Program-made: the position numbers and the translations under genes
Shown: one piece after another, positions 1 through 63,674 of the stretch
Layout: the number at the start of each line of letters is the position of its first letter
How positions within the stretch are numbered: position 1 is the stretch's first letter
Notes under the pieces: model-generated
What the model saw: only the letters and a program-made list of their open reading frames with translations
Told to the model about the DNA's origin: nothing
The model's database searches: none
Assembly: GCA_032718475.1 (NCBI GenBank)
Contig: JAUCBJ010007129.1
Span: forward strand, 1 to 64,000
Length of the DNA: 64,000 bases
From: Nemertoderma westbladi
Taxonomy: Eukaryota; Animalia; Xenacoelomorpha
Direction: 5' to 3'

Positions 1-159
1 TGATCGATGCACAAAATCACCAGTCTTTACCTACGCCAAGCAGCCCGTGTAGTACCGAGGTTAATTTAACTATAGTGGTATGTATAACAAACACAATTAC
101 TGTAGGAACAAACTTGGGGACTTGAATGTTGCGAATAATCGCATAAACTCTGAATAATA

Positions 160-724
160 AATATTACGCTACGCGTACAAACTACTCAAACAAAATACAG
201 ACAGAACACTGACAGACTATTATCAAGCCTAAACAAACTACGGTATATGCAGACTCCGAAATGATTAGGGAGTATGCGCTCTAACCCAGTAGTGCGACTT
301 ATTCTTTAGTTGGGGGTTTACCTTACTGCATTGGCTGCCCCTACTGCCTAATCGTACTTAATCGGACAGATGATCTACACACGAGGCAATCCGTTCAGAC
401 TTAACAACAGCCAGACAACTATCCAGCCTACAAATTATTTAAATAAAATTATACGCTACCCGTACAGACTTACACAAACAAAGTACAGACTAAACGATGG
501 CAGACTACTCTCAAGCCTAAATAAACCACAGGACATGCAGACTCCGAAATGATTAGGGAGTATGCGCTCTAACCCAGTAGTGCGACTTATTCTTTAGTTG
601 GGGGATTACCTTACAGCGTTCGCTGCCCCTACTGCCTAATCGTACTTAATCGGACAGGTGATCTACACACACTGCAATTCGTTCGGACTTAACAGCAATC
701 AGACAACAGCTCAGCCTACAAATT
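160..724. repeat. ~290-bp tandem duplication in the family C leader
   Basis: ATGCAGACTCCGAAATGATTAGGGAGTATGCGCTCTAACCCAGTAG... occurs at ~247 and ~536; the B1 leader has a single copy. Confidence 0.85.
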
Positions 725-1020
725 GTCTGTACAATCTGATCAGGTTTACACGCCTTCTGTTCAATACTGGCCTACAAATAAATAAAACTTGACAGAAATA
801 AGTAAACCATATAAAGGTATAAGGGGTGATCAATCCCTAATCCCTTAAACAGCCTACCGGTATGCAACAATCAAATCGAATAATACTAGTGTACTTATAC
901 TGAAGTACCGGTTAGAACAGTTAGGCCTACTGACCTACAGAGTGTACCGGTTCAGGTTTACCGGTTGACCGATACTTTCAACTTTATTGCTTACTGCAAC
1001 AAAGAAGCTATATCCTTTAA

Positions 1021-2183
1021 TGTTCGCGCTTTCAGACCTTTGGCAGTTTAACCCACCAAATCAAGATGTCTTCTAGATATTAAATCTGTTTTTAGTCTAT
1101 GACAAGTATTTGATTCACTACACTAGTCGAAACCAATCCGTGCGCGACCATTCACCCGCTGGAGATTCCCGGGAGATTGGGTTCGACGGTTTAATTTTAT
1201 TGCTATGTAAGCCTAATGTATTATTCGACTGACAGTATTATATAATCTCTGACAATATTATTCACCTTCGGGAATATTAACAGTTCCTTTAGGACGTGGC
1301 GCTTTATCTATATAAACAGAGTTATGACTCAAACTACTCACAACGATATGGCTCAATTACAATTCACATATATGGCGCATTCTTTAGGAATTGCTTCTTT
1401 AACAGACTCACTCATACACAATGCTGCACAATACTGCACACTAATCTGCCAATCTTCACTGATTTTAGTCACATATAAAAGGAACACAGACTGACTCATG
1501 TAGGGTCTATCAAATAACATTAGATTCACTTCAAACCACTTTAACATAAGTCACAATCGTTTATCTGTAACCCTTCTCTCTTACCTTCGGTATATCAAGA
1601 ATATTGGGTTTCGGGGTGATTTATCGTTATTCCAAATATAATTATTCATCAACCATATTATGAAGAACTGACGGTAAATAGCAGTATAAAACAACAATGA
1701 AAACACTGATTGTTATGAGTTTGCAATGTTTCAGCAGTCAGCATGTATGATCAGTCAGCAGTGATTCCATGAGTCAGGTAGTTAAAGGATATATGCCCTT
1801 TATAATTAAACCTACTAGTGTAAGACTAAAAAACAGTAAAGCACAAAATACTTCCAAGCCGTTCTTTCTTTGGCTCAGGACTGAATGTAAACACTGCACA
1901 TAGGCATTGCGTCATTTCTCGGAAATTTTCTGTACAAGGAGCCACAAAAACGCTCTAATTGGCTGACTGAACTGAGAGACGCCGTAGAACAAAGGAAATC
2001 AACACGTATGAATGTCAGCTGTTAACCGTAGTCATAGTAACTACTGTTCAAGAGTAGCTATCACCCCTTTGCGTCACGAATTGCCATAGAATCATAAAAT
2101 ATGCCTTTCACAGTACACATACGGAGGAAATAGGTCTTAGATCCTCTAAAAACACCGATACAGCAATAATACGGTCTCTTACA
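1021..2183 (-). repeat. LTR of family C (TGTAAGAG...GCGCGAACA on minus strand)
   Basis: The 1021 boundary matches the B LTR boundary. The 2183 boundary is inferred only from a TGTAA start analogous to B's TGTAAAAG. Confidence 0.65.
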
Positions 2184-2339
2184 CTTATTAAATCAACTAC
2201 AGAGTATTTTAATGTAAAAGATAATAAAAATAACGGGGCAATTCAGCAAAGGCTTTTACAATTGGGTCCAGATTGGGTTCAGTACTTAGTTTATGTACTA
2301 CTAGCGGTAAATTTGTTAACACGCCATCTAGCGGCCGAT

Positions 2340-2700
2340 GCTGATATGTTGGGTCTCTGACCTTACCTAATAATTAATTGAGAACCATCCATAGGTTATT
2401 CAAAATCAATGAAGTGGTTCAAAAGTTATTAAGCATAGACGAAGTGATATTTAGTGCCTCCTAGAGGCGGAAAATTTAAATGCACGACGCCAAAATTCTG
2501 AAAACTTTCTAAACTTTTGACATACTACTTGTGTACCACGTTTGGAATAATTTCATCACAAAGATTCGCTGAGTTACTGTAGTAGCATTCAAAGATTAGA
2601 CGGACCGACCGACCAACCGCCTGGCAGACCGACAGATAGAAGCGAGGTTGAGATTGGTACCCGTATTCTAAGCTCGCTCACTTTCGTGGCTCGCCCCACA
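2340..2700 (-). mobile_element. Non-autonomous element with a GACC/GACA microsatellite (DINE-1/HINE-like); a related end lies in the opposite orientation at 5312-5380
   Basis: 2657-2698 (TAAGCTCGCT..TTCGTGGCTCGCCCC) is the reverse complement of 5312-5350 (GGGGCGAGCCACGAAG..AGCGAGCTTA). A tetranucleotide microsatellite is adjacent. The family assignment is tentative. Confidence 0.4.
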
Positions 2701-3159
2701 GTGTTAGTCAATTTAACGGGTGCTTGTCAGTTCTGTCACTGGCCCTGTGTTACCGGATAGAGCCTCTGGTTGTTTTAAAGGCTTCCGAAATAGTGACTCT
2801 AGTATTTTTAAGGCCCTTAAAATAGTCCTTAAAATTACTACTGTAATGTTTTTGTAATAAAGTTCCCTTTCAACCTCCCCTTGCTCGAAGAGCATCCTAA
2901 TGTTGCCATAGATTCATACAGTCTGGCTCCATGTAGTACCGGTAGGGGTATCGATAGACGATAGATATATTGTGTCTGGTAACCCGAACCCTTTCCTAGC
3001 TCCTTACTCTGCCGTTGTTTACACGAACCAAGTCCAAGTTAACTCAAACTCGGTGATTGGTAACCCTAACGCGGTCGATAACCCAAACCCAGTCATCGAA
3101 GACCCTAATCAGGATAAATGCTAACAACCACGAAGCTCATGTCTACTACAATTTGTAGA

Positions 3160-3342
3160 ATTGATAATAAGTGAATTGTTGTGGGGCGAGTGACGCGGTG
3201 AATTAAATATAAATAGGACAATATGATAATGCTCTCCATAGCGAAAAATATCAACCGGCCCTATTGGGGCTCGAACCCGGTACCTAGGTTTCAAACTTCT
3301 GGTTATCATCAGCCGGGTGAGTGTACTGAGCTACGAGGCCGG
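3160..3342 (-). mobile_element. tRNA-derived SINE-like sequence, with a partial second copy at ~3531-3630
   Basis: The minus strand reads GGCCTCGTAGCTCAGT (A box) ... GGGTTCGAGCCCC (B box). The body is duplicated at 3531-3630. Confidence 0.55.
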
Positions 3343-3829
3343 ATGATATTTCGTTATGGAGTGGAAAATCATATTAAGGCTATACAATCACTCAAAGTAA
3401 AGTACAACTTTCGTTATTCCCGTGCTCTGCCAGAAATGGCAACCATGCCTCAAATAATAACTTTTATACAGTGTTGTAGTTGTAGAAACAAACCACTGTA
3501 GCCCCGTATGCCTGGCCCAGGCTGTTAGTTAATGATAATAAGTGAATTGTTGTGGGGCGAGTGACGCGGTCAATTAAATATATAATGTAAATAGGACAAT
3601 ATGATAATGCTCTCCATAGCGAAAAATTCGCAACCATTGAATAATTGAACAATTAAATTGCATAAATTTTTAATTTAAAATACCCTCACACCAATAGAAT
3701 TCCTTTCAAGCAATATTAAAGTAACCTTTCTAGACCAGTTTTTCATGCCAAACGCGAATATGAACTCAATTTTTCCGCACCAATGGTTATAAGAAAGTTA
3801 TAAGAGGTGGGTTTAAGTTATAATTATTT

Positions 3830-3931
3830 AAAGGCGGCACACTGCCGCCCTTATGAGCATGGTCCTGAATTATTTAAAATGAAGAAGGCGGCAGTGTGCC
3901 GCCTCTTTAGTTTTGGTACGCAAAGGGTTAA
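3830..3931. mobile_element. Possible piggyBac-like transposon end
   Basis: Ends in CAAAGGG-TTAA, with subterminal palindromes GGCGGCACACTGCCGCC and GGCGGCAGTGTGCCGCC. No partner end was found. Confidence 0.3.
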
Positions 3932-4017
3932 AAATGTGCCGTTACATATTTGCTGTTTACTAGGTTAGAAAGGGAAGGACATATATTCAATTTACTATAA
4001 TATAGACAGACACCAAC

Positions 4018-4262
4018 CTTGTAAGTTTCCTTCATATGTGGTGAACAACTTCCGGTTTTCCACGCAAAATACCATGGACCACAAACACTGGCCAGTGAGA
4101 AGGAGGTAGTTGAACTCCAAATTGGAAGCTTCTAGGTAACTCAGGAGAATTTCTAGAACACCGTTTTTACCCAATACTATCTTGGCTTCATTACCCAGTG
4201 ATAAACGGAGTATAGTGTCCAAGAGATTTTCAAGAAAATCGTTGGAGGTGATTATTTTAAAT
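4018..4262 (-). CDS. Putative host exon, armadillo-repeat-like protein
   Basis: Open frame LRLSLGNEAKIVLGKNGVLEILLSYL...GQCLWSMVFCVENRK has an ARM-like helical pattern. It is bounded by a TTTAG acceptor (AG at 4263-4264) and an AG/GTTGGT donor (4017). Confidence 0.45.
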
Positions 4263-4374
4263 CTAAATTTAAAATATATATTGAATATTTCTATATGTAT
4301 ATTCGTCATATCCATGTATATTATTAAATTTCTCAAACTATGCCGTATATACTACACTCTGTGGGGCGAACCAC

Positions 4375-5311
4375 AGAGTGCTATGCTACGCATGTCCTTA
4401 GATCATCATAATGATGATGGGGTGATGATAACTCCACCTACTGGCTCCAGAAGTCGAGGAAATCCTGCCAAGTACCTAACTGATCTAGACTTTGCTGATG
4501 ACTTAGGAGTACTCTCAGAATCACTAGAGGGAGCCCAACGGCTCCTCAGCTCATTAGAACATGCTGCTTCTAGTGTTGGTCTTTTTATTAACTCCAGAAA
4601 GACCAAAATTTTGACAGTTAACTTTGAAAGTCCTCAGCAAGTCTCTGATCGGATGAGCATAAGCTCAACAGATGGTATGCTTGAGCATGTGGATGACTTC
4701 TGTTACCTGGGATCATGGATCCGGAAGTCAGGTGAGGACCTTCGAATACGTAAGGGAAAGGCAGGGGCAGCCTTGAATAGGCTTTCCAGGATTTGGAAGT
4801 CACCGAGAATTAATCGGAAACTTAAGGTCCGGTTATTTAGAGCAGCAGTAGTTCCAGTACTCCTCTATGGGAGTCCATGCTGGGCTCTAACTGCTGAGGA
4901 CACCAAATCTCTGGATGGCACATTCACAAGAATGCTACGCCGGGTTCATTGTGTCAAGTACAATGCACACATCTCCAACCAGACACTATATAACATTGGA
5001 GGTGTCTCATTGGTTCCCCCAAGCTTGACACTAGAACAAAATCGCCTCCGCTTTGCAGGACATTGCTTTCGCCGTGAGGACCAGCCAGTGCATAATCTTG
5101 TACTTTGGCAGCCTCATGGAGTGAATAAGCATGGTGGACAGCCCATGACTTTCTTGAGACGCATCTTAAAGGACACTGGCCTTGAAGATGCGGATGATCT
5201 AGCAAATGTCATGGGTGATAGGGAGTTGTGGCGGTACAATTTTGTCGATAAGCCGGCACAGCATTCTTAAAAATGCAGCTGCAATGCAGCATGCCGATCT
5301 TAGTAGTAGTA
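4375..5311 (+). mobile_element. 5'-truncated RTE-clade LINE (RT C-terminal half, within ORF 4182-5270)
   Basis: Motifs DLDFADDL, FCYLGS, PVLLYGS..W and LRFAGHCFRR, plus an (AGT)n tail. Likely TSD GGGGCGA(A/G)CCAC at 4363-4374 and 5312-5323. Confidence 0.85.
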
Positions 5312-5562
5312 GGGGCGAGCCACGAAGCCAGCGAGCTTAACATGCGGGTGCCGTTATTTGAAACGTTGCCTGTCTGTTTGAAGGCTAATATTGGTCAATA
5401 TAATAATGAATGTCAATATTGATAAAACTTAAATCTCTTCTTTTTAAACTTAGTCTAAAATTTTAAATCTAATTTTGCAGAAATTTTTGCACACATTCTC
5501 TGTTTTTGGGATGACGAACTCCCTGCAATACCTCAGAAATCGAGTACAATTAGAATATGCGC

Positions 5563-5777
5563 AGCACGTCTGTCGCAGTACGAGTGTGGCCGTCTGTCGC
5601 AGCACGAGTGTGGCCGTCTGTCGTAGCATGAGTGTGGCCGTCTGTCGCAGCACGAGTGTGGCAGTCTGTCGCAGCACGAGTGTGGCCGTCTGTCGCAGCA
5701 CGAGTGTGGCAGTCTGTCGCAGCACGAGTGTGGCAGTCTGTCGCAGTACGAGTGTGGCCGTCTGTCGCAGCACGAGT
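5563..5777. repeat. 24-bp minisatellite (GTCTGTCGCAGCACGAGTGTGGCC), ~9 copies
   Basis: Direct tandem units with no spacers. Confidence 0.95.
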
Positions 5778-7690
5778 ATAGAATTATATTCCCTAAATGC
5801 CGTGGATTTTCAAAATTTTTATTTTATTCGAATTAACTTTGTAAAGATTGCTTTGAGTTCTCATTAGTATTGGTTCTATCTATTGTGCACCCATCGGTCA
5901 AGTGGTTCAGTAGCTCAGTCGGTAGAGCGTTGGAAATTATATGTGTAGTAGGTATCGAGTTCGAATCCTAATAAGTGCGAATTATTTTTTGTGCAGAATT
6001 TCAACTCATTTAAATTAACCGCTACAAATTAATTGCATTTGTCTGTACCAATAAGGCTGTAGTTATTTGATTGTAACCAATGTCGTGCAAGTTATATATT
6101 AGCTGGACCAATAAGCTATCTTTAAAACCTTGTTAGAACCCATAGAACAATCGAGAATTTTCTCGATTGATTGCAGCACAAATTTAGTATATAAAGGTGC
6201 GATTCGTTCATTAGTTCTCAATCTTATATCTCAATCTTTCTCAGATTATCTTATCAATATTCTGTCGTGCTTAGTTTATTCTCAGATTACATTGTATTAT
6301 AATTGTGTCTTCTGTAATAAAGTCAGAATATTCTCTCAGCTTTTCTGTTTTACTATGAATTCACTACGGTGAACAAACTCAGGGACAGGATGGCCGGCTA
6401 GAGATCGGGCCGCAGCAATGAACGGGAACATCACGGGAATGTAGACGAGAGACAACCCGCAATACCATTTAAAGTTATTCGCCCATCGCCTGAAAGGTTA
6501 GACAGCGTTCGATCCTTGCTACCTAAGTATAAGACCAAAAGATCAAAAGGTAGACGTAGTGACACGCTGCAAGCCTAAAATTACATCATAGGGACTGTAC
6601 TGTCTTGATTCAGGAAAACCCACAGTAGACCTTCACATTCCTACGGGGGGAGGGAGAGAGAGCAGATACTAGTACGCAGATAGGACGTAGGCACACCGGT
6701 ACAAGGCATACACATTGGTTAGGGTGCAGCAAACTGTACGCTTAACTCTTGCTAAGTACAGGTGTGTGTGCGACTATTTGCCGTACAACAGTGTCCATTA
6801 CATCAGAACTTGTAGGCTAGGGGGTTGCTGTGTTTTCACCTGAATTGGGATTGTACCGTTCAGGCGGTAGGGCAGTTTACGCTAGGCGCAAATAAATTGA
6901 GGCTATCAGGGATATACTAACATCTACCGTGTCCCCGCCAACGCCCTAATAGGAAGTTACCCGGACTACCTGGGTGACTAAAATTCTAGATAGGAGCCAG
7001 GATAGCTATTAGTACCTGTACGCCTACAGTAGTAAACTAACACATCTCTTCTTAGTATCAGGGACCTGGTACCTAAAATTGCCGAATTCTGGGCGTAGTA
7101 TTAACCTTATGCCTGAATTTGAGTCCTGGAAATACGCAAGAGGGGAAGGAACCTTACCATTCGTGAGTATTGGACCTACAAGTTACAAAATTAGAATATT
7201 CGTAAAATGCACACCGTACCCAGTAATTATATATGTGAAGGAGCAAAACTGTTTTGACCGTTCAGAATTAACACACGCGCGTTAGAAATTATTTACACCT
7301 CGAAATATATAAAATTAACTTTGTCCGTACTGTGCTTTGCCCGCTAGTTAGACATCTCCAAATCTGCTCTATACCTAGCTAGCGTCCCTTTGCCCAACCA
7401 TATAAATCACACCGCGGCAAAGTATACGAGCCCCTTAGTCCGTCAGTGAGTCAGCCTGATTTTAGGATTCGCTGCGCGGGATTTGTTTTACCGAAGTTTG
7501 TCTGCTCGTAGACTGTTTTCTGCCTCACCGGTTATAAGAGATCGATACTGCAATATATTCGCTTACTTAGGGTTTACTGTTTTGGTGAGGAGGTCGGATT
7601 TATGATTTGATTTACAAACTTTACAGTAGGATATTGCAGGTATTGTTACCGTCTCTTCCGATAGTAGGAATAGGCGTATCTCTTCAATTA
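5777..7690 (+). repeat. 5' LTR of A
   Basis: Matches 26748-28685 from TATAGAATT to CTCTTCAATTA. Contains TATATAAA at ~6188 and AATAAA at ~6316. Confidence 0.93.
5904..5990 (+). promoter_or_regulatory. tRNA-like Pol III A/B box unit inside the LTR (second copy at 26874-26960)
   Basis: TAGCTCAGTCGGTAGAGC (A box/D arm), GAGTTCGAATCC (B box), then a T6 run at 5985-5990. The acceptor and anticodon stems do not pair, so this is not a tRNA gene. Confidence 0.75.
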
Positions 7691-8499
7691 GTAGGAATGT
7701 GTTTTACTGAACTCCGGTTCGGTAGGACTAAAGTTTTTTGAAAATTTTGTATTTTGAGGTAAAAATTTATATTTGATTAGCTAAGTGCTAATTTTTTGAA
7801 ATAAAATTTGATTTGAACCGCGTGTAAAATATTTTTGGAATTGAATACCGGTGTTTAAAAAGGGTTTAAATACCATATTGTACCGGTACAAAAATTTTCG
7901 TAAAGTAAAACCTAACTCTTTTGTTTTTCAGGATTCAGAACTCATTTTTAGACTGTAACGGGAGCAAGACCGTGTTTAGCAAGTTTGGGAGATAGATAAC
8001 TCAACAACTTTGGTTGGGAAAATCGCGTTTCGTCCGCAACGTTAAAAACGGAAAGGTTCACGTCCGGTTTGTATCTGGGAATCTGTTTTTCTGGAGAATT
8101 ATTGGAGTGGGTGAGTTCGAAAAGTTGCATAAATAAGTTAGGCATTACCGTATTAGTTAAAATTATTGTGGGTTCCACTGTCTCAAGTATTTATGCATTC
8201 CGTATGATTTCTTTGTTCATTGCTGAATTAGTCCGTATTATTGTATTTAATTTACCTTTTGATAACGCATATCGTTATCCGATTTATTTGTTATAAAATT
8301 GGCCGCTAGGCTAATTTTATTATATACTTATTCCGTGACATTTATTTGCTGTAAAATTGGCCGTTTAGGCTAATTTTATCCATCTGCTATAAAATCGGCT
8401 GGTAGGCTAATTTTATAAGACTGTAATTAGTACCGTTTTGTATAAATACGGTAAACTCGATACTTTGACACTCACTTTACTTGACTTACAACTACCGAA

Positions 8500-11400
8500 A
8501 TGAGTGACAAACAAGACTATACGAAGAACACACCTACCGACTATGACTCGTGTGACGCGGATAAGTCAGCAGCGGAAGGACAACAGGGGAAGACTCGCGA
8601 GCCTACCGAACCTACACCGTGTGCGTCACCGATACATCCAACGGGAGTACCGGATGCCGTAGTACGAGGCGACGGCAGGACCGAGGACTTTCTAACTGTT
8701 CCGCAACCTAGATATAGGGAAACGGAAATGGTAAGTTCAGCAGGAAGCACAGAAAGTGTGATTAGAAGCGTCGGTGGTTACATGGCGCATATAACCAGGA
8801 GTATTGGGGAAGGCCAACGCATATTAGACGAGTTGACCGCTCCGATGTCTCGATTCGAGTTCTACACCCTCCAGGTTAGAGTACAAAGTAGAGTACACAA
8901 GTCCGTAGATAACCTAATTGGTCTACAAGATCTAGCTAGACAGAGACAGGACATGGATACTCAACTTAGAATCCTCGAGAAACTGATGATCGCTAGAGAG
9001 AAACTGATTCAGTTTAAGTCGACGATTAGACAGATACAACAGGAACAAGCGGACCAGTTGTTAGGTGAGTCAGTTTCGGACGAATTATTACAACCCGAGG
9101 AAGAACAGGAACTGTACCGACTGGATGGACAATTAAAACACCTGACGGACCACTTACGCATGTGCGGGGAAGACGTCGGAGATTGGGAAACCGTGCCGGA
9201 ATATACGAGAGAAACTTCACCCGTACGAATTGAATCGGGAATACTGGACCAATCGTTGGTAAGTATTCGTAGCGAAATCTGCGAGGGAAGTATAGTCACG
9301 TCAGAAGTTGCTCGACAACAGCAAGAATTCTGCCGACAACGACGAGAAATGGAGGAACAAGCTCAACTTCTAGTGATGCAGGCAGCAGTAGAGGAAGAGA
9401 AGCTACGCGTTGCGAATATAGCAAGAATCTCTCATCTACAGGAACAAGCTGAATTAGAAGCAGCTGAAGTGGAAAGATTAGAAGTAGACATTGCCCGACA
9501 AGCGGCAGCGGCAGCGGCCGAGGTAGAACGACAAGCGGCAGCGGCAGCGGCCGAGGTAGAACGACAAGCGGCAGCGGCGGCGGCCGAGTTAGAGCGACAA
9601 AACGCAGCGGCCGAACTGGAGCGACAAACGGCAGCGGCAGCGGCGGAATTAAAACGAGAAAGGTTAGTTTCGGAAGCACGGGCCGAAATGAGAACACGGC
9701 AAATAAAAGCTCAATCTGCTATACGACAAGCAGAGTTCGAGGCGCAACGACAACAAACGGAACAACGAGAGAAGACAGTGAAACTTCATTTCGAACTCGA
9801 GAAGAAGGCGAGAGAATTAGCGAACGCCGAGGAAGATTTGGATCAAAAGGCCCGCGATCGATCGATGAGATCTCGTGACGGACATGATTTGGACCAGTTA
9901 GAGGTAAGACATCGCCAAATTCAGGAACGGAAGAAGGAAGGAAGCGTAGGAGCACCCGGACGGGAACGACAATTAGTAAAAGACGTGTGTCAACGATTCC
10001 CACAGGTAACTCATATGTTTGCACCGGTTACGACTAAGGAACCTGTTTCGATTGCGGGTAGTAGCGATATTTCTCCTATCCATGGTGCGACGGAACACAG
10101 GTTTGTTATTCCGGGCGAGTTTACACCGCCAAGAGCAACGTCGTCGCCTATTCCGAAAGTCAAGGTAAGTAACCCACCGATTACGGATCGTAGTAGTTTA
10201 TTGACCGGACCTGCGCTACTGACGACAAAACAGGTGAGTCCACCGTCGACACCTAAACCCGTTACACACTACGCTTACCCAATGACGTTTCGACCAACAA
10301 GGCCTTTGGATTCAAATGCTGTCATTCGCCCACCGTTCAACCAATTTACATCGCAATCTACGACTTCGAGGAAGACTTGTGAGCCTACCGAACAACGAAA
10401 GCGAGACGATGTTCCGAAACGAACCGTTAGAATTAGTGCGACGCAACGGACGCGAGCACGTCGACCACCATATCCAGATGATAGTAGTACTTCGAGCGAA
10501 TCGGATTACCCGAAACGCGAGGTATTTAGAACGGGGGCGGCCGATGAATATAAACGCGAGCGTTCAGACAACTCTTTTGCAGATAATCCTCCACAGAATA
10601 CACCAACACAGAAGGCGTTACAACCAACGGACGCAATTAGTACACAACAGTTCGCCGACATTCTGCGACCAGTTGTCAATAAGTTGGCTCAGATCGAGGA
10701 GCGTCTGGAGGAAGTTCAAACCGACAGTTCGAGAAATTCCGAATTCGAACACAATAGACACCCGAAGGAACCACAAAGACCGGTACCTTCAAACCCCATA
10801 TCGTATCAGGGAAAAGCGCCAAGAAGGGATATCAACCAGTGTACCAACCAAGGACGCGAAACTCTGAACGTTGCTGAGGAGATAGCAAAATTCGCAGCCA
10901 GACAGGGATTGCCGGTACAACAACCACCGAAGTTTTCCGGTAGCTCAAAACACTGGCATACCTTCGTAGACTATATCGAATCCCAGATCGCCGTGTGCGC
11001 CTTTACATCACGGGAGAAGTTCAATTACTTGCTCCAAACGTTGTCAGGAGAACCTAAACGTTTGGCGGAGACTTTCGTCGGTGTACCGGACGCTTTCGAA
11101 CTAGCGTACGATCGTTTAACTTCGATATACGGAGGTACAGTGAGCATGGCCAGGTCAGTAATAGAGGAACTCTGTAAGGGAGGGGCTATCACTAAACCCG
11201 TCGACTTACTAAAACTAGCTGACGAAATCAAGAACGCTATCACTACCTTAAGATCAATTGGACAACTTGATTACGGGAATACCCCTACAGTCCTATTAAA
11301 GATAATAGGACGACTCCACCATCGACTTCGTCGGGAGTGGAGGAAGGTCGAATACCAGCGAGAGGAGCGGGGAGGATTCTTAAAATTAGAAGATGTGTAC

Positions 11401-12084: not shown

Positions 12085-13284
12085 GGGTGTCGACAGCAGG
12101 CGGCGGTGGACTCGTGAGGGTCTGGGGGCACGTTAAATTGTTGTTATAGTGCAAGGGAGTCACTGAAGGCCCTCGTGTCTAACGAACCATGAATTGCCAT
12201 GGTGCCGTGGTACCGTCTAGTCGGCCTGTTGCCGTACTGCCAGTCCTGTACACAGTAGGGGTGGTGGCATGGCGTGATTTGTGGCTCATGTGGCGTGAAC
12301 TATGTTTTGTATGTGGGCGATCAGTGGCAGTTTGCTTGGGGCTTGGATGGTTCCATTGGCCGTCAGCTGTTCCGTTTTTTTGATACTATATGTTATTGTC
12401 TCCATGTTCAGCTGATTGGTCTTTGGTGGCATTGGAAAAACCGTCGGGTCTTGAGCTTTCTGTTACTGTGGGTACGTGAGTACACGTGATTGTATGTGTG
12501 GCCACTGCGAGTGGGTATGGGAACCCTTGCCAGTTGGACAAGACGCCGCTGGTATTAGTAGGACCATACTTTACTGCACCCCAGCATACTTTGTGCACAC
12601 AAAGTTATTTTACCCTGTCGGTAAAATAAAGTACTCTCGACTCTTTTCGAGTTTCAGTCGATACAATTTTGTCCCCTCTGAATTTGTCCCTTCCGATTTT
12701 GACCCCGATTTTGTCTTTACCCGATTATGTCCTCTGTGTGTGCATGGTATGTGTCAGATTTTGTGTTTACCGTAGTGTACTTGATTTCGTGAACATCTGT
12801 TGAAGTACACGTGTACAGGACGGGTAAGTGGTTACTTGTTTCTAGCTTTCGAGCTAGTCAGTATTGTTGAGGAACGGTGTCCCCTCAATACTGCCGGCGA
12901 GGCAGGTGAAAACGAGTCAAAATTCCATGTTGGGTAGCGCAAGCCCACGTGGGACAAGACCGTCGGTTAGGCCCAAGGGCGACCTTGGTGCTCGATCGCT
13001 ATCGACTGGTCCACCTGCCGGTTGACTCTTTGTTATACTTTGAGTTGGCTCAATGTACAGTCAGGCCACAGTAAGTTGACAGTAGCCGCCCATCTGGCTA
13101 CACGTTCGACGAGCTGTGCTGGTGTGATCGGGGGACCGAAAACAGAACCCGGGAAGCATCAGGCCACCCTCCGGCCCGGTCTGATAATAACATCTGTCGG
13201 ACTGGCCCCAGGGGTGGTGGAAAGGTGTTCGCCTCATGGGTGCGCCTCGGAGTCATCAGAGAGGAGCCCAGAAGGACACAAGCG
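12060..13284. other. 1.2-kb unidentified insertion at the gag/protease junction
   Basis: The duplicate copy reads CCGTCGAT|CGCGCTCCTG without interruption at 17160/17161. Confidence 0.8.
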
Positions 13285-16200
13285 CGCGCTCCTGACCACT
13301 GACCAACTGAAGGGATTCAGTGTAATCCCGATTAAGATCACTGGCACAAAGGGGAGTAAGAGGATCTACGCGATTCTAGATTCAGCCTCATCTCACAGTT
13401 ACGTGGATGAAAAGATAGCTGACGTCGTGACGGATCTCAGACAAGGTAAACACGTCAGTTATACAGTAAGTAGTATGCACGGACAGCGTGCAATACCAGT
13501 GACACGAGTTAAGTTGGACTTAGACTCTCTTCTTCCAAAATCGCAACACAGCGAGAGGGAGAGGTCTTTGTTACCCTTTAGAGATCTAACCTTTGCGGCC
13601 ACGAAGGACTTTAGTAACCTACTAGGTCCAGTGCCGGAACAATCTCTGGAGGACCGTAAGTATTTCAGACACCTTGGTGTACCCGAATGTCCTGTCAATT
13701 ATAGATCGGTAGCAATGCTGATCGGGACGGACCAATTCAACCTACATCAGGTGTGGGAAACCAGACCATCGGCAGTTGTAGCAGGAAACGCATACGCCTG
13801 CAGAACGCCGATAGGGTGGTATACACGAGCGCCTGTGCGCACACTAGACGTAAGTGACGAGGAAGACGATGTACAGAGTACATGCAGTTTATTAACTACA
13901 AACTCAATTCATTCCTTTTCACACGACGTGAACCATACTACACTACAGTCGACAAAACATCACAGACGTGTAACTAGTATGATAAGTCACAAGGAGCAGC
14001 TAACCCACAAGGTGAGTTTAGGACTTGGGGGGAAGACGAGTCAGCTAGAGATTCCATCGACGACAGATGATAGGCTTGCGAGTCTACCTACCCCAATAAC
14101 CTCAACAGTGCCCGTCGATATCGATGATGACGCGTTGAAAATTCATCAGTTGGAACAAGCCGCCTTGGACAAAGAATTAACGGAGAAGACTATCAGGTGG
14201 TTAGAACAAGATACAGCTGAACCTGGTAGCTACGAACCTTGTATGTCGGAACAGGAGAAACAATCCCTAAAGATCATGGAGGATACTATCCGACAGACGG
14301 AGGACGGACATTACGAGGTGGGGATGTTATGGCGTAGCCAAAGTCCTAAACTTATAAATAACTACCCACTGGCTTTAAGACGTCTACACTCAATACGACA
14401 ACGTCTATTAAAGGACGAGAAAGCCCATCTGCAGTACAACACTCAGATGGAGACGTATTTGACTGAAGGATACGCTATCCGAATGACTAACCCGGAGCGA
14501 GTGACCGACCAGACATACTACCTGCCACATCACTATGTGAGACACCCCGACAAACCAGATAAAGTACGCGTAGTCAATGATTGTGCGGCTCTATTTGAGG
14601 TTAGAGTTGGACATTGCACAACAAGCGGCAGCGGCCGAGTTAGCGCAACGAACAGCAGCGGCCGAGTTAGAGCGACAAGCGGCAGCGGCCGAGTTAGAGC
14701 GGCAGCGGCAGCGGCCGAGTCAGCGGCAGCGGCAGCGGCAGCGTCCGAGTTGGAGCGACAGAGGTTAGCTTCAGAAGCGAGAACCGAAATGAAAAAACGG
14801 CAAATAAAGGCTCAATCAGCTATACGACAAGCGGAGTTCGAGGCGCAACAACAACAAACGGAACAACGCGAGAAAGAAGTTAAACTTCGTTTCGAACTCG
14901 AGAAGAAGGCGAGAGAATTAGCCAACGCCAAGGAAGACCTGGATCTACAAGCCCGCGATCGATCGATGAGATCTCGAGACGGACATGACTTGGACCAGAT
15001 AGAGGTAAGACATCGCCAAATTCAGGAACGGAAGAAGGAAGGAAGCGTGGGAGCACCCGGACGGGAACGACAATTAGTAAAGGACTTGTGTCAACGATTC
15101 CCACAGGTAACTCATATGTTTGCACCGGTTACGACTAAGGAACCTGTTTCGATTGCGGGTAGTAGCGATATTTCTCCTATCCATGGTGCGACGGAACACA
15201 GGTTTGTTATTCCGGGCGAGTTTACACCGCCAAGAGCAACGTCGTCGCCTATTCCGAAAGTCAAGGTAAGTAACCCACCGATTACGGATCGTAGTAGTTT
15301 ATTGACCGGACCTGCGCTACTGACGACAAAACAGGTGAGTCCACCGTCGACACCTAAACCCGTTACACACTACGCTTACCCAATGACGTTTCGACCAACA
15401 AGGCCTTTGGATTCAAATGCTGTCATTCGCCCACCGTTCAACCAATTTACATCGCAATCTACGACTTCGAGGAAGACTTGTGAGCCTACCGAACAACGAA
15501 AGCGAGACGATGTTCCGAAACGAACCGTTAGAATTAGTACGACGCAACGGACGCGAGCACGTCGACCACCATATCCAGATGATAGTAGTACTTCGAGCGA
15601 ATCGGATTACCCGAAACGCGAGGTATTTAGAACGGGGGCGGCCGATGAATATAAACGCGAGCGTTCAGACAACTCTTTTGCAGATAATCCTCCACAGAAT
15701 ACACCAACACAGAAGGCGTTACAACCAACGGACGCAATTAGTACACAACAGTTCGCCGACATTCTGCGACCAGTTGTCAATAAGTTGGCTCAGATCGAGG
15801 AGCGTCTGGAGGAAGTTCAAACCGACAGTTCGAGAAATTCCGAATTCGAACACAATAGACACCCGAAGGAACCACAAAGACCGGTACCTTCAAACCCCAT
15901 ATCGTATCAGGGAAAAGCGCCAAGAAGGGATATCAACCAGTGTACCAACCAAGGACGCGAAACTCTGAACGTTGCTGAGGAGATAGCAAAATTCGCAGCC
16001 AGACAGGGATTGCCGGTACAACAACCACCGAAGTTTTCCGGTAGCTCAAAACACTGGCATACCTTCGTAGACTATATCGAATCCCAGATCGCCGTGTGCG
16101 CCTTTACATCACGGGAGAAGTTCAATTACTTGCTCCAAACGTTGTCAGGAGAACCTAAACGTTTGGCGGAGACTTTCGTCGGTGTACCGGACGCTTTCGA

Positions 16201-19200
16201 ACTAGCGTACGATCGTTTAACTTCGATATACGGAGGTACAGTGAGCATGGCCAGGTCAGTAATAGAGGAACTCTGTAAGGGAGGGGCTATCACTAAACCC
16301 GTCGACTTACTAAAACTAGCTGACGAAATCAAGAACGCTATCACTACCTTAAGATCAATTGGACAACTTGATTACGGGAATACCCCTACAGTCCTATTAA
16401 AGATAATAGGACGACTCCACCATCGACTTCGTCGGGAGTGGAGGAAGGTCGAATACCAGCGAGAGGAGCGGGGAGGATTCTTAAAATTAGAAGATGTGTA
16501 CCTTTTAATATCCAGGGAGGCGGTAGTAGAAACTCGATCTAACTATACCGACCAGCACATCGTGGCAGAAGGGATCACACTGCCATCCTCCAACCGACAA
16601 AAACCCCAGACAACATCCACTAAGACGGCCACTTACGCAACACCGACGGAATCACGACAATTCTCAGACGGTAATAGAGTATCTGCGCCCATTGGGACGA
16701 AACAGACGAGACAGCAACTCAGCATCGACTTCAACGGCTGCCAATACTGCGAGCATCTAGGTAAGCGGTATATCGGTCACAAGTTACGAGGTTGTCGACA
16801 ATTTCGCGAGTTGAACTCGGAAGAACGACGGCTGCAAATACGGCCACTGGACTCTTGTTGGCGATGTACACGACACGGACACGTGCGTAAGGATTGCCCA
16901 AATACTGACACTTGTCCATCCTGTGGACGCAACCACGACGGTCTGCTCCACACAGACAGCCACACGCCGACGAAACGCTTCGCCAGGGAACACCCGGAAG
17001 CAGCAGCGAGATGTGATGCGGCCTACCGAAAACGAGAATCGAAAACGACTCCGACCTTCGTGACACATATTGAGGATTGCTTCTCAGAACAATCCGGATC
17101 GTCGGACGAAGAATCAGAAGACGACGACGAATATCCCAATGGAGACGAACAACCGTCGATCGCGCTCCTGACTACTGATCAACTGAAGGGATTCAGTGTA
17201 ATCCCGATTAAAGTTACTGGCACAAAGGGGAGCAAGAGGATCTACGCGATTCTAGATTCAGCCTCATCTCATAGCTACGTGGATGAAAAGATAGCTGACG
17301 TCGTGACGGATCTCAGACAAGGTAAACACGTCAGTTATACAGTAAGTAGTATGCACGGACAGCGTGCAATACCAGTGACACGAGTTAAGTTGGACTTAGA
17401 CTCTCTTCTTCCAAAATCGCAGCATAGCGAGAGGGAGAGGTCTTTGTTGCCCTTTAGAGATCTAACCTTTGCGGCCACGAAGGACTTTAGTAACCTACTA
17501 GGTCCAGTGCCGGAACAATCTCTGGAGGACCGTAAGTATTTCAGACACCTTGGTGTACCCGAATGTCCTGTCAATTATAGATCGGTAGCAATGCTGATCG
17601 GGACGGACCAATTCAACCTACATCAGGTGTGGGAAACCAGACCATCGGCAGTTGTAGCAGGAAACGCATACGCCTGCAGAACGCCGATAGGGTGGTATAC
17701 ACGAGCGCCTGTGCGCACACTAGACGTAAGTGACGAGGAAGACGATGTACAGAGTACATGCAGTTTATTAACTACAAACTCAATTCATTCCTTTTCACAC
17801 GACGTGAACCATACTACACTACAGTCGACAAAACATCACAGACGTGTAACTAGTATGATAAGTCACAAGGAGCAGCTAACCCACAAGGTGAGTTTAGAAC
17901 TTGGGGAGAAGACGAATCAGCTAGAGATTCCATCGACGACAGATGATAGGCTTGCGAGTCTACCTACCCCAATAACCTCAACAGTGCCCGTCGATATCGA
18001 TGATGACGCGTTGAAAATTCATCAGTTGGAACAAGCCGCCTTGGACAAAGAATTAACGGAGAAGACTATCAGGTGGTTAGAACAAGATACAGCTGAACCT
18101 GGTAGCTACGAACCTTGTATGTCGGAACAGGAGAAACAATCCCTAAAGATCATGGAGGATACTATCCGACAGACGGAGGACGGACATTACGAGGTGGGGA
18201 TGTTATGGCGTAGCCAAAGTCCTAAACTTATAAATAACTACCCACTGGCTTTAAGACGTCTACACTCAATACGACAACGTCTATTAAAGGACGAGAAAGC
18301 CCATCTGCAGTACAACACTCAGATGGAGACGTATTTGACTGAAGGATACGCTATCCGAATGACTAACCCGGAGCGAGTGACCGACCAGACATACTACCTG
18401 CCACATCACTATGTGAGACACCCCGACAAACCAGATAAAGTACGCGTAGTCAATGATTGTGCGGCTCTATTTGAGGGAATGTCCCTCAATAGTGAGTTGA
18501 TGGATGGACCGAACATGAATAATTATCTTATGGGGGTGATTATGCGCTTCCGTCAGCGCCAAGTAGCCTTTACTTGCGACGTTGAAGCGATGTTTCACCA
18601 AGTAAAAGCGTTAGAGCGAGACAGAGACAGTTTGCGGTTTCTCTGGTATCCGGAAGGGGACTTAAGTCTACCACCAGCGACTTACCAAATGCAAGTTCGC
18701 GTTTTCGGTGCCAGAGACAGCCCAAATTGTACGATGTACGCCTTGAAGCAAGCCGCTAGAGATCAGAAACATCTGTATGACCCAGAGATAATTAGAATTG
18801 TAGAACGTGACTTTTACGTTGATGACGGATTACAGAGTTGCGACACAGTAGAACGTGCTACAACAGTAGCACATCAATTACGGGACTGCTTGGCGGGCGG
18901 AGGTTTTAACCTCACCAAATTCGCCTCAAACAGTGCCGAATTAGTTGACTCATTCGGAACTACTGAGCGTGGAGGTGGTGACATAGACCTAGAGTTCGAA
19001 CCACTACCGACGACTAAGGTGTTGGGGCTCTTTTGGGACCCAAACACAGACAACTTTCGAGTGAAGGTGAGACTGGACAGTCAAGGAAACACACTGACCA
19101 AGAGATCATGCTTGTCAAAATTGAGCCGATTGTTCGATCCGTTAGGATTCATCAGTCCAGTGATACTGCAAGCCCGCATTTATATGCGCAGTATATGGAA

Positions 19201-19957
19201 GGATGGACTAACATGGGACGAGCCGATCTCATCAGACCAAGTGGACTTATGGAAAACCTGGGAGGCGGAATTATCTTCACTAGAGGATTATTTCATACCC
19301 AGGGTTTACTTTCCATTACAGAGTACATTTCCTGACAACTTGGAACTACACTGTTTTTCTGACGCCAGTGACAACGGTTTTGGTGTGGCAGCGTATTTGC
19401 GCAGACAAGTAGAATCGGACGAGTTCGATGTTTCGCTCATTACTTCTAAGGCTAAGACCATGCCTACTAAGTATATGACGACACCACGAGCCGAGCTACA
19501 AGCCGCGACCCTGTCAACCACCATCGTGAACCTCATACAGACAGAACTACAGTCGAGTTTACAGATATTTTATTGGACTGACGCGACGTTAGTTTTATTT
19601 TACATAAACAACGACACACTCGAATTCAAGACATTCGTAGCTAACCGTCGCGCGGAAATTCTAGACCGTTCAATAAAAGAGGATTGGCGACATTGTCCCG
19701 GACCACAAAACCCAGCTGATATTGCGTCGCGAGGAATGATGCCTGAGGAATTCTGTAAACCGGAGAACAAAGAGTTTTGGCAACACGGACCCCAGTTCTT
19801 GCAGAAATCGACACAAGATTGGCCTCCGTTGTACGACAACAAGTCCAACACCATTCCTAAGGACGCCGAAATCAAGAAACCAAAAAAGGGGAAGACAAAG
19901 AAAAAGACGACGGCGGCAAAACTCAAGAAAAACCGAAGGCGAAATGGAAAGATATAA
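13022..19957 (+). CDS. pol: Chimeric polyprotein: PR and RT N-terminus, then a second Gag-PR-RT-RNase H
   Basis: AILDSAS occurs twice; YYLPHH, FYVDD, LFDPLG, FSDAS, WTDA and NPADIASRG are present. The true element sequence resumes at 13285. Confidence 0.92.
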   Translation: MTLCYTLSWLNVQSGHSKLTVAAHLATRSTSCAGVIGGPKTEPGKHQATLRPGLIITSVGLAPGVVERCSPHGCASESSERSPEGHKRALLTTDQLKGFSVIPIKITGTKGSKRIYAILDSASSHSYVDEKIADVVTDLRQGKHVSYTVSSMHGQRAIPVTRVKLDLDSLLPKSQHSERERSLLPFRDLTFAATKDFSNLLGPVPEQSLEDRKYFRHLGVPECPVNYRSVAMLIGTDQFNLHQVWETRPSAVVAGNAYACRTPIGWYTRAPVRTLDVSDEEDDVQSTCSLLTTNSIHSFSHDVNHTTLQSTKHHRRVTSMISHKEQLTHKVSLGLGGKTSQLEIPSTTDDRLASLPTPITSTVPVDIDDDALKIHQLEQAALDKELTEKTIRWLEQDTAEPGSYEPCMSEQEKQSLKIMEDTIRQTEDGHYEVGMLWRSQSPKLINNYPLALRRLHSIRQRLLKDEKAHLQYNTQMETYLTEGYAIRMTNPERVTDQTYYLPHHYVRHPDKPDKVRVVNDCAALFEVRVGHCTTSGSGRVSATNSSGRVRATSGSGRVRAAAAAAESAAAAAAASELERQRLASEARTEMKKRQIKAQSAIRQAEFEAQQQQTEQREKEVKLRFELEKKARELANAKEDLDLQARDRSMRSRDGHDLDQIEVRHRQIQERKKEGSVGAPGRERQLVKDLCQRFPQVTHMFAPVTTKEPVSIAGSSDISPIHGATEHRFVIPGEFTPPRATSSPIPKVKVSNPPITDRSSLLTGPALLTTKQVSPPSTPKPVTHYAYPMTFRPTRPLDSNAVIRPPFNQFTSQSTTSRKTCEPTEQRKRDDVPKRTVRISTTQRTRARRPPYPDDSSTSSESDYPKREVFRTGAADEYKRERSDNSFADNPPQNTPTQKALQPTDAISTQQFADILRPVVNKLAQIEERLEEVQTDSSRNSEFEHNRHPKEPQRPVPSNPISYQGKAPRRDINQCTNQGRETLNVAEEIAKFAARQGLPVQQPPKFSGSSKHWHTFVDYIESQIAVCAFTSREKFNYLLQTLSGEPKRLAETFVGVPDAFELAYDRLTSIYGGTVSMARSVIEELCKGGAITKPVDLLKLADEIKNAITTLRSIGQLDYGNTPTVLLKIIGRLHHRLRREWRKVEYQREERGGFLKLEDVYLLISREAVVETRSNYTDQHIVAEGITLPSSNRQKPQTTSTKTATYATPTESRQFSDGNRVSAPIGTKQTRQQLSIDFNGCQYCEHLGKRYIGHKLRGCRQFRELNSEERRLQIRPLDSCWRCTRHGHVRKDCPNTDTCPSCGRNHDGLLHTDSHTPTKRFAREHPEAAARCDAAYRKRESKTTPTFVTHIEDCFSEQSGSSDEESEDDDEYPNGDEQPSIALLTTDQLKGFSVIPIKVTGTKGSKRIYAILDSASSHSYVDEKIADVVTDLRQGKHVSYTVSSMHGQRAIPVTRVKLDLDSLLPKSQHSERERSLLPFRDLTFAATKDFSNLLGPVPEQSLEDRKYFRHLGVPECPVNYRSVAMLIGTDQFNLHQVWETRPSAVVAGNAYACRTPIGWYTRAPVRTLDVSDEEDDVQSTCSLLTTNSIHSFSHDVNHTTLQSTKHHRRVTSMISHKEQLTHKVSLELGEKTNQLEIPSTTDDRLASLPTPITSTVPVDIDDDALKIHQLEQAALDKELTEKTIRWLEQDTAEPGSYEPCMSEQEKQSLKIMEDTIRQTEDGHYEVGMLWRSQSPKLINNYPLALRRLHSIRQRLLKDEKAHLQYNTQMETYLTEGYAIRMTNPERVTDQTYYLPHHYVRHPDKPDKVRVVNDCAALFEGMSLNSELMDGPNMNNYLMGVIMRFRQRQVAFTCDVEAMFHQVKALERDRDSLRFLWYPEGDLSLPPATYQMQVRVFGARDSPNCTMYALKQAARDQKHLYDPEIIRIVERDFYVDDGLQSCDTVERATTVAHQLRDCLAGGGFNLTKFASNSAELVDSFGTTERGGGDIDLEFEPLPTTKVLGLFWDPNTDNFRVKVRLDSQGNTLTKRSCLSKLSRLFDPLGFISPVILQARIYMRSIWKDGLTWDEPISSDQVDLWKTWEAELSSLEDYFIPRVYFPLQSTFPDNLELHCFSDASDNGFGVAAYLRRQVESDEFDVSLITSKAKTMPTKYMTTPRAELQAATLSTTIVNLIQTELQSSLQIFYWTDATLVLFYINNDTLEFKTFVANRRAEILDRSIKEDWRHCPGPQNPADIASRGMMPEEFCKPENKEFWQHGPQFLQKSTQDWPPLYDNKSNTIPKDAEIKKPKKGKTKKKTTAAKLKKNRRRNGKI

Positions 19958-22052: not shown

Positions 22053-22711
22053 TTAGGAGTTTACAAATAGATTTCCACGTACCTGTACACCGTAGTAAGG
22101 ACAGCGGTAGAATTCCATTGTCTTTATATGTGAACATTGAGGGTAGTACCCTTATGTGTCACATAGGAGCGGGATTTGTAGGTATAAGAAATGGAATTCT
22201 ACTTGGAACTCACAATATTGAGACATTTTCGAAATTTTAGACAATCCATTTGGATTTGAAAAATTTTTAAAATTTTCTCCAGTGAATAGATTTCAGGGTA
22301 CAGTCGGGTGGAACTTAAAATTAGAGAAACAAGAGAGGAAGACTTGCGAGCCTTTCTTAAAATTTTAATTAAATTTTACACGGTCTTGTTTCAATAAGTT
22401 ACGACAAAATAGACTCCCCTATATTTATTACTAATTCTTGACTGCTTATTTTCTGATAATAGTTTGGGATCAAAAAGTGAGTATTTTAGACTCACGGCCA
22501 GTTTAGCCCAAATTCGTTTTTATTTCGGCAAAAAATTTTAGATAAGAAGCAGCGTGTCATTAAAGAAACCCTAGATCTTAGGCTATGGGTAGGAGGTTAG
22601 AGCGTTGTCGAGCCCAAAGGGCAGACGAAACTCTCACGTCTCCTCACAACTAACTACAAACTCTGTTGTATTCCCTCTAGTAGTAATGATTATGTAACTA
22701 CACCTCTAATT

Positions 22712-25700: not shown

Positions 25701-25858
25701 TTGGGATGCCAAATAGACGAATTTGCGAGGAAATAGTCGCACCGTCCCTCAACGTCCCAAGTAAACCAGTGACTCGCCCCATTAGTCCCATATCGCGAGC
25801 AAAGTCACCTGTGCGCAGTTTTCGAGGACGCGGCAGGGCTCGATCTACTAAGCGATAA
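22712..25858 (+). CDS. ORF3 of A: 1048-aa accessory protein with a DEDDy-like 3'-5' exonuclease domain (~24050-24900)
   Basis: ExoI FYDNEG; LPKMVRNMILDKTVVKVGSGVREDL (WRN/Mut-7 ExoII signature); YVDTRPL; ExoIII-like YLAIE. Homologous to ORF3 of B2. Confidence 0.8.
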   Translation: MEKGTQGEPRWGYDIQEEAAAPFERFGAKDYTIFGIKELSESTAKLARTKYDSNVLKRRQNALNERIESLRQTFNELYPYDALCDTGDISEDPDTEISRLYHTMQYLKAHEPMPAVRDEFDGMHLYRRTRGDDRETKEAFSVYKLYYQCGSCMREQRNAIPMRLNKENPEPILARCSNHQQLRYQEGGYPLSNPYHSFAMTGPKAGETVIYPPKVVEPDVFELTLDEANQSTREKKEALSLYRAYKAFEKGEMEEWGGRLASLPCHWTSHDQTSAKEMTPEVFESINFAQNVIQRLQIASPERPREMQPYSTSATKPLSTTLNFPISIPVRQDTTYEIPIVDHPEIISNLEFLPAVVFSDMSKIYDLRRHITQKVVNNVPPHIQDFKELDRAGADIAPSNLKGYLTKTIRLWIGIGTFESDTDIAADWRGKVIRFDEDKDIEKIWQPSEELLDEWTRTFRSFQENGYMFYDNEGGSHQQSLTSKTIQIRAADGVLHVFSRQRSDKRMPIPPANTKRHHLITDIVKKMDQACNIDARMLPKMVRNMILDKTVVKVGSGVREDLISDFAGMTDSDDRLPTPYVDTRPLILWSIEQGYFREYNTQKTGTGYISYLLFNWDYKEGKRNKYIETYGEGDTPDMSEFESQLKWRGCVYWAITSPPRAVLQYYLAIESSVNVCLIADIVSRTLKGHPLCLGEDHTFYMEGRIRTDVFRRFLEPFYNSDAQCNAFTRAGFSIFRDVYLRCAGSLIERPSMFTLLPYEGERIVEITDESRQTRAPIGHLGDEFEVTTTIADDPLEELLEIERNLRLPHDSGFRVVREYLLQIHPDNKNTWNFQKVVNRITYGEFDRFRTEKRNKGAWLTVAWAYRAAFYHKRIRASVFEEEEVLEATNISATPVAPSARHPREDGQGRIIRVQKVGQQLKKIINVEERKGVEPTIRVTRDTVSLPREPVGGSGHTPADQQGAQATLGSASSAFREFPDVLPTVATTDRSRGIGRGFGMPNRRICEEIVAPSLNVPSKPVTRPISPISRAKSPVRSFRGRGRARSTKR

Positions 25859-31386: not shown

Positions 31387-31460
31387 CCGCTCCCAGAAAA
31401 TGGGATTTAATTCTATAAAATATAATAAGTCACAGTCACAAGTCTAAAATATAAAAATAC

Positions 31461-39107: not shown

Positions 39108-39254
39108 GTTTGATTGTACAGTTGAATGCCTACTACTATAACGACAGTTAAAGCAAGTCTAGTAATTCAGTATCAACTGCAAGCCTAGTAATTAATTACC
39201 GATACTGTTACTCAGTGTAACGTGATATATATACAGATATATAATATGTTAGAA

Positions 39255-39630
39255 TACCGGTATACACTTATAGTATATATAAGAATTATTACAGACTAGA
39301 ATTAGTCACAGAATACCGGTATATAATTTCAGCATAAATTTATATAAATATATATAATAAGCCTACCGTAAATACCAGTATACAGCATACACTTATAGTA
39401 TATATAAGAATTATTACAGACTAGAATTAGTCACAGAATACCGGTATATAATTTCAGCATAAATTTATATAAATATATATAATAAGCCTACCGTAAATAC
39501 CGGTATACAGCATACACTTATAGTATATATAAGTATTTATACAGACTAGGATTAGTCACAGAATACCGGTATATAATTTCAGCATAAATTTATAGAAATA
39601 AATATAATAAGCCTATCGTAAATACCGGTA
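39255..39630. repeat. ~125-bp unit x3 in the B1 leader
   Basis: ATACACTTATAGTATATATAAG...AATACCGGTA is repeated; B2 has one unit. Confidence 0.8.
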
Positions 39631-63670: not shown

Positions 63671-63674
63671 CATG

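Follow-up and report, generated by a model that had tools for sequence, protein, structure and literature searches.

A likely self-priming signature at the LTR boundary of BEL/Pao retrotransposons in Nemertoderma westbladi

LTR retrotransposon families of the window

The 64,000-nt stretch of contig JAUCBJ010007129.1 of Nemertoderma westbladi analysed here (hereafter, the window) is a nest of animal LTR retrotransposons of three families, A, B and C (Table 1). The Gag-Pol frames of the window have matches to DUF1759 and to peptidase A17 of the Pao family, and the closest database proteins, with identities of 31–41%, are Pols of BEL/Pao elements from corals, echinoderms, molluscs and fish. The domains that define BEL/Pao elements (Pao peptidase A17 / DUF1759 Gag-Pol, RT and integrase domains) are present in families A and B, whose Pols (A versus B2) are 43% identical, and the corresponding LTR features are found in B1, namely TGT...ACA LTR ends, a polypurine tract and a CCCCT target duplication. 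Family C, whose coding region lies beyond the window, probably belongs to BEL/Pao as well, judging from the homology of its LTR and leader to those of B1. Membership in the Tf1/sushi chromoviruses was considered and rejected, since Pol matches the Pao family, not Ty3/gypsy, and none of the 21 frames scanned gave a chromodomain match.

Family A deviates from the TG...CA rule, its LTRs ending in TA...TA (5777–5781 and 7686–7690), and no target duplication was seen. Its 5′ and 3′ LTRs (the latter at 26748–28685) differ by 10 substitutions over 1913 aligned bases, and the A LTR gave no alignment with the LTRs of B and C (best E value 0.19). B1 (30113–42441, minus strand) lacks the RT–RNase H–integrase stretch that B2 has at 53681–57275, and its coding content identifies it as an apparently non-autonomous element despite an intact target duplication and LTRs that are 97.8% identical. 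An extra 3′ ORF of 1085 codons (22601–25858, plus strand) has broken homologues at 48045–51655 and 31885–32613 (minus strand) and is about 30% identical between A and B; it returned no Pfam, PDB or representative-protein match, with Atlas scores of just 0.77, and is to all appearances an orphan gene of the window's BEL/Pao group.

The A LTR holds further features. A tRNA-like A-box/B-box stretch at 5897–5975 (plus strand), repeated in the 3′ LTR copy, received no call from ARAGORN and presumably resembles the tRNA-like inserts of Helenus LTRs. At 6371–6378, after TATA and AATAAA, stands an internal GGTGAACA similar to the LTR end of B and C, perhaps an earlier boundary. An 8-nt copy of the LTR-end/PBS junction lies inside the end of the A LTR (7661–7672, plus strand), and a second 12-nt copy of the PBS is found 40 nt into the B1 leader, within a 10-bp hairpin (41157–41173, minus strand); both partial duplications are possible traces of misregistered plus-strand transfer. 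Other repeats of the window include a segment at 3255–3340 (minus strand) with tRNA-like A and B boxes, recognised by eye, around a hammerhead-like core that matches Rfam HH9 weakly (E 0.53). This segment has the look of a repeat of the polymerase III retrozyme or SINE type, and its downstream flank recurs in part at 3533–3627. A non-LTR-type reverse transcriptase fragment (RVT_1 weak, DUF6451) occupies 4140–5270 (plus strand), a 24-nt tandem array adjoins the A 5′ LTR (5544–5783), and 52-nt and 12-nt tandem arrays lie at the end of the window (62870–64000).

Table 1. Coordinates of the elements, paired sites and candidate motifs (window positions unless a locus is named)
Feature	Position	Strand	Description
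Family C leader	1–1008	−	Homologous to B1 leader, 71–85% to 40439–41822
Family C primer-binding site	1009–1020	−	TTAAAGGATATA; no TGG; first base after LTR end
Family C 5′ LTR	1021–2260	−	1240 bp, TGTAAAAG...GCGCGAACA; polypurine tract before 2260 in a run X5 contig
Downstream TATA-like motif with Inr-like TCAGT	1471–1480	−	Weak in C, better in B
Splice-donor-like motif	1580–1587	−	Candidate; common to C, B1 and B2
Hypervariable block	1697–1781	−	Begins directly 3′ of site; replaced in subfamilies
Family C LTR segment complementary to PBS	1782–1793	−	TATATCCTTTAA; exact; predicted primer 3′ end at 1782
TATAAA	1799–1804	−	C alone; absent at same column in B1 and B2
CCAAT-like box	1957–1963	−	Candidate upstream promoter element; function inferred
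Family A 5′ LTR	5777–7690	+	1914 bp, TATAG...CAATTA
Family A LTR site	6634–6644	+	CACATTCCTAC; about 420 nt downstream of TATA/Inr set
Family A primer-binding site	7691–7701	+	GTAGGAATGTG; starts exactly where 5′/3′ LTR identity stops
Family A Gag-Pol frame	12971–19957	+	DUF1759, RT YVDD, peptidase A17
B1 3′ LTR	30113–31386	−	27 substitutions in 1224 aligned bases versus 5′ LTR
B1 primer-binding site	41196–41208	−	TTAATAGTTTTAC
B1 5′ LTR	41209–42441	−	Element 30113–42441; 5-bp duplication CCCCT on both sides
B1 5′ LTR complementary site	42004–42016	−	Identical at 30900–30912 in 3′ LTR
B2 3′ LTR	46256–47430	−	B2 5′ end missing, its PBS outside window
B2 Pol piece	54681–57113	−	RT (YMDD) and Pao peptidase A17 domain: BEL/Pao
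Junction-completed PBS complements of relatives	L003: 1000–1770; L004: 1000–1862; L009; L017: 4290–4678; L051: 1485–1848		Predicted GT-AG junction inside LTR

Pairing between primer-binding site and LTR

The original prediction had matched the first bases after the family C LTR with a segment of the LTR itself. We confirmed that positions 1020–1009, directly after the LTR end GCGCGAACA (1021), are the exact reverse complement of 1793–1782 over 12 nt, and we infer that 1782–1793 is the priming segment. The depth of this segment, first given as about 390 nt, had to be corrected: it lies 467 nt into the LTR, at nt 468 onward of 1240, because the C LTR starts at 2260, where it shares the TGTAAAAG start of B and where a contig of run X5 has a polypurine tract directly upstream. 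The depth given for B (425–475 nt) was right. The boundary 12-mer arose in 0 of 5000 dinucleotide shuffles of the C LTR, and in 2 of 5000 when offsets 0–6 were allowed, and among 2230 real start positions in the C LTR and leader the boundary was the sole one with a 12-nt complement in the LTR.

Exact boundary-anchored complements were found in all three families with a readable 5′ LTR end, since B1 has a pair of 13 nt (1 of 5000 shuffles) and A one of 11 nt (5 of 5000). Other subfamilies and shuffled AT-rich controls had been named beforehand as the places where the prediction could fail; the pairing extends to both B1 and A, and equally long matches anchored at the boundary are rare. In A the complement begins where LTR–LTR identity ends, which supports self-priming, since priming sets that base. 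The B2 site (47022–47032) differs from that of B1 and lacks its last two bases (terminal AA). No TGG occurs within 20 nt of the LTR end in C, B1 or A, whereas a tRNA-type PBS is expected to start with TGG 0–5 nt after the 5′ LTR. All three have instead a complement of at least 10 bp starting 0–5 nt after the LTR, which is the published rule for self-primers as worded in an excerpt of PMC6317226.

The pairing was further proposed to carry the signature of selected base pairing, on the grounds that B and C differ on both strands of the pair. Indeed, 4 of the 12 positions differ, each of them is matched on the partner, and the positions fall in the same alignment columns. Pairing across families reaches 4–5 nt at the boundary, and duplex energies are −15 to −22 kcal/mol with a family's own site versus −6 to −11 for swapped partners. 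The family specificity and the exact placement at the LTR boundary therefore stand, but the selection signature was overstated: selection is not established, because just two families can be aligned and four pairs have changed. Matched changes may also arise by copying, since the Tf1 primer gets copied into the cDNA end; in about half of the particle cDNA, the 3′ end bears a DNA copy of the primer sequence (PMC11042837, partial text). The matched changes thus point to priming and do not by themselves show selection, and the family-specific boundary pairing most likely marks a self-primer. Two features count against this reading: duplex strength is low in B and C (about −11.5 kcal/mol), and the loops closed by the A, B and C pairs measure 761–1046 nt, versus 44–149 nt in the relatives described below.

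Extensions of the core helix did not withstand shuffling. By eye, the helices of C, B1 and A could be lengthened upstream of their core, but 214, 711 and 1521 of 2000 shuffles, respectively, did as well, and an extension downstream was equalled by 1626, 1883 and 104 of 2000; no splice junction in A, B or C yielded a primer better than the contiguous core. When RNA running from the site and including 120 nt of leader was folded, the core pairing probability was 0.95 in C, 0.22 in B1 and 0.92 in A. It fell to about 0 for C and B1 when the RNA started 30 nt earlier, and to 0.00–0.03 with 200 nt of leader, so that the outcome depends on the length folded and is not robust. Rfam searches at E values up to 1 gave no match in or near the sites within 1–9000, and hence no sign of a ribozyme there.

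Distant BEL/Pao relatives

No close relatives of the window's elements were found in metagenome, viral or genome contigs; locus L001, the one pattern match, was rejected as a chance 19-mer. Pol alignment led to 18 loci in prokaryote bins, and a family search of 5 bins and 13 regions added more. The prokaryote genome bins (L002–L019, G001–G005) contain complete BEL/Pao elements, in all likelihood DNA of the host that was assigned to the wrong bin. The analysis covered the 12 elements with a readable 5′ LTR boundary, leaving aside those lacking one (L002, L005, L007, which is the same as L052, L008, L011–L016, L018, L019, L044 and L046–L050) and an unrelated element nested in L009.

Five of the 12 loci (L040–L043 and L045) appear to be tRNA-primed. 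They resemble the window families in Pol family and LTR layout, but they have TGG 0–1 nt after the LTR and a self-complement of just 3–7 nt; all five come from one assembly, L041 and L042 being near-identical. A self-complement of 11–12 nt is reached by six of the seven loci without a tRNA-type site versus none of the five with one, a comparison in which L003 and L004 are one family and L051, which has TGG at +2, was assigned to its class from its complement after the fact. The complement of L010 is contiguous (11 nt at offset 4). Those of L003, L004, L009 and L051 (11 nt) and of L017 (12 nt, with the offset widened to 8 after inspection) exist only across a GT-AG junction in the LTR, whereas L006 has 8 nt (null 15/292). 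Empirical nulls, drawn from each element's own internal sequence with the same junctions permitted, gave 0/294 for each of L003, L004, L010 and L051, 1/292 for L009 and 0/133 for L017. Between L003 and L004, three exon-side bases differ, and so do the three matching PBS bases.

The five loci with junction-completed complements share with the window families an 11–12 nt boundary complement to their own LTR and the same side of the Pol tree. They differ in that their site needs predicted intron removal and lies near AATAAA and the LTR end, whereas C, B1 and A have contiguous sites distant from the LTR end. In a tree of 35 rows, which comes from a quick search (the careful one being unfinished) and includes L040 as a long branch, the five TGG rows fall on one side of a branch with an SH-aLRT of 89, and the nine other labelled rows, including A and B2 of the window, fall on the opposite side.

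Placement of the site and a model for priming

The TATAAA that the original prediction placed a few nucleotides upstream of the C site, at 1804–1799, is present, but its suggested corollary, a primer segment confined to U3, is not favoured: the motif is missing from B1 and B2, and on the motifs R appears the likelier placement and U3 the less likely one. Family A has a canonical CCAAT-TATA-Inr set about 420–560 nt upstream of its site, and B and C have a CCAAT some 180 nt upstream of theirs (176–186 nt in the B1 3′ LTR and B2). In Tf1-type self-priming the transcript's first bases serve as the primer; the motifs would put the start in A about 420 nt upstream of its site and are ambiguous in B and C. 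In the five relatives of the splice type the site would be completed by removal of a predicted upstream intron and would lie 0–31 nt before AATAAA, which likewise points to R. The donor-like motif of C, B1 and B2, standing 207–251 nt downstream of the site and before the downstream TATA, also speaks against U3. Two observations count against R, namely that B and C share no TATA upstream of the site and that in A an AATAAA lies between the TATA and the site.

It is established that the sites pair, where they do so, that the pairing is family-specific and that a TGG site is lacking; the priming steps are what we propose on this basis. Self-priming of some form in A, B and C is highly probable. 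In the version that we favour, to which we assign a probability of about 0.58, BEL/Pao elements would prime with their own LTR RNA by means of a site borne in R and RNase H cleavage where the duplex ends on its 3′ side. A transcript beginning in the LTR, at the site itself or farther upstream, would carry the site within R, and this segment would anneal to the PBS. The element's RNase H would then cut at the 3′ duplex edge (1782/1781 in C), as in Tf1, where an excerpt of PMC7175516 places the cut between bases 11 and 12, and would leave a 3′-OH from which DNA synthesis would begin at the first LTR-end base, run back as far as the cut and then switch to R at the 3′ end. Plus-strand synthesis would copy the primer and, with selection, would keep PBS and site matched.

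Public contigs of family C show where the sequence varies around the site; run X7 had none covering it. Joints replacing 1697–1781 are seen in contigs, subfamily variation directly 3′ of the site appears in contigs of four studies, loose contig ends lie at 1776–1780 in three, and 30 of 30 gapped columns come after the site. Among the indels listed, 9 of 12 fall at 1749–1780, three at 1799–1828 and none in 1782–1793. This pattern of indels and joints indicates that subfamilies keep the site in common and diverge directly after it, and under the cut model strand transfer just 3′ of the site would account for variation located there. Contig substitutions occur also at 1823, 1833 and 1839, and a PBS variant at 1016, which accounts for roughly one quarter of the depth of the contigs in each of the runs X1 and X3 and whose partner change would be expected at 1786, may count against self-priming.

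An alternative, in our view unlikely, places the site in U3 or where poly(A) cleavage occurs, so that only the 3′ part of the RNA would carry it and would prime at the PBS of the same or a partner RNA. Two features of B and C fit the U3 idea of the original prediction, a TATA/Inr-like set lying +300 to +360 from the start of the site and an AATAAA between +440 and +592, and conservation is greatest downstream of the site (C versus B1, 0.27–0.52 per 100 columns up to column 700 and 0.57–0.77 in columns 701–1300). The TATAAA of C, which we take to be a variant of the poly(A)-signal hexamer, ends 17 nt before the site end, a spacing like that of a poly(A) signal, and the loss of the terminal AA from the B2 site also speaks for this placement. 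However, B1 and B2 have no TATAAA and A no such hexamer, and promoter or donor motifs precede the site, and AATAAA follows it, both in A and in the five splice-type relatives. Moreover, a cut in U3 would break the template of the same DNA, so that two RNAs with different fates would be required. The downstream TATA/Inr-like set is possibly a second start site, and it does not place the site in U3, because Tf2 combines a productive LTR start that bears the primer with a downstream start that omits it and cannot sustain reverse transcription (PMC5341516, partial text).

It is rather improbable that a separate LTR-started RNA, whether short, spliced or prematurely ended, primes uncut genomic RNA in trans in place of a tRNA. 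Such a primer would account for the relatives that retain the LTR intron while using a spliced primer, for the AATAAA between TATA and site in A, and for the very long loops of A, B and C; a cis cut followed by transfer a short way downstream of the site accounts equally for the retained intron and covers, in addition, the variation that starts right after the site. We give similarly little credence to the idea that the pairing is a long-range RNA structure (for cyclisation, packaging or a translation switch) and that priming falls to another molecule, for example a tRNA fragment. Half-tRNA primers without TGG do exist in copia lineages, according to an excerpt of PMC6317226, but the helix begins at the first post-LTR base in all three window families, is exactly Watson–Crick without significant extension, and varies freely in sequence among families, which a shared tRNA primer would forbid. 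That the pairing arose by chance in AT-rich sequence, or through a single inverted duplication, is largely refuted, since, although complements of 11–13 nt occur at some non-boundary positions too (for example, one 13-mer in 3412 positions in B1), the pairs are anchored at the boundary in three families at 0, 1 and 5 of 5000, B and C positions are homologous, and the pattern recurs in distant loci and is missing from tRNA-type loci.

Self-priming has precedents in other retrotransposon groups. The self-priming groups named in an excerpt of PMC6317226 are Tf1/sushi and, by prediction, Tcn1 and TAR. Tf1 and Tf2 of Schizosaccharomyces pombe and Tj1 of S. japonicus, from the Tf1/sushi group of Ty3/gypsy, resemble C, B and A in lacking a tRNA site and in having an AU-rich LTR segment on the 11-nt scale complementary to the boundary PBS (PMC7175516, PMC5341516 and PMC4600332, in excerpt). 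That group is a different superfamily, the elements here being BEL/Pao, and, compared with Tf1, the loop here is 761–1046 nt and, in A and the splice-type relatives, a position inside the RNA is predicted for the segment. The Tcn1 chromoviruses and the TAR elements (Houba, Osr-1) of plant Ty1/copia follow the same sequence rule as C, B1 and A, in other superfamilies and hosts, where self-priming is also a prediction alone. Excerpts of the self-priming literature (PMC6317226, PMC3601003, PMC7175516, PMC5341516, PMC4600332, PMC11042837, PMC8220671, PMC6934838, PMC11485995) do not name BEL/Pao, and a literature search of titles and abstract starts, with supplements, subscription journals and Repbase/Dfam entries outside its scope, gave none on BEL/Pao self-priming. 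By term counts, 'PBS', 'tRNA' and 'priming' are absent from the main text of the Sinbad paper (PMC554778) and of a BEL/Pao survey (PMC3118150), and 'pbs' and 'self' each score 0 in partial texts of PMC6238403 and PMC8556966. The signature is likely a BEL/Pao variant of the mechanism known from these other groups.

More broadly, and with some doubt, we suggest that a large marine BEL/Pao branch may have swapped its tRNA primer for an internal segment of its own LTR RNA. The segment would be excised hundreds of bases away from the cap; some lineages would assemble it by splicing, others, such as A, B and C, would have it ready-made, and the cut point would fix where strand transfer occurs. If so, the sequence just 3′ of the cut point would be a hot spot of recombination and mutation, and a primer that is internal or spliced would imply a cutting step unlike that of Tf1. 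Hosts use a tRNA-fragment target against LTR elements, and self-priming would take this target away; it would also explain the failure of PBS-based annotation on these elements. To this question the window contributes three cases with contiguous sites and long loops, together with a contrast to loci of the tRNA type. With a BEL/Pao case, tRNA-free priming would reach the third LTR superfamily and many marine animals, and such a case would bear on whether priming by tRNA has been lost several times or was acquired late.
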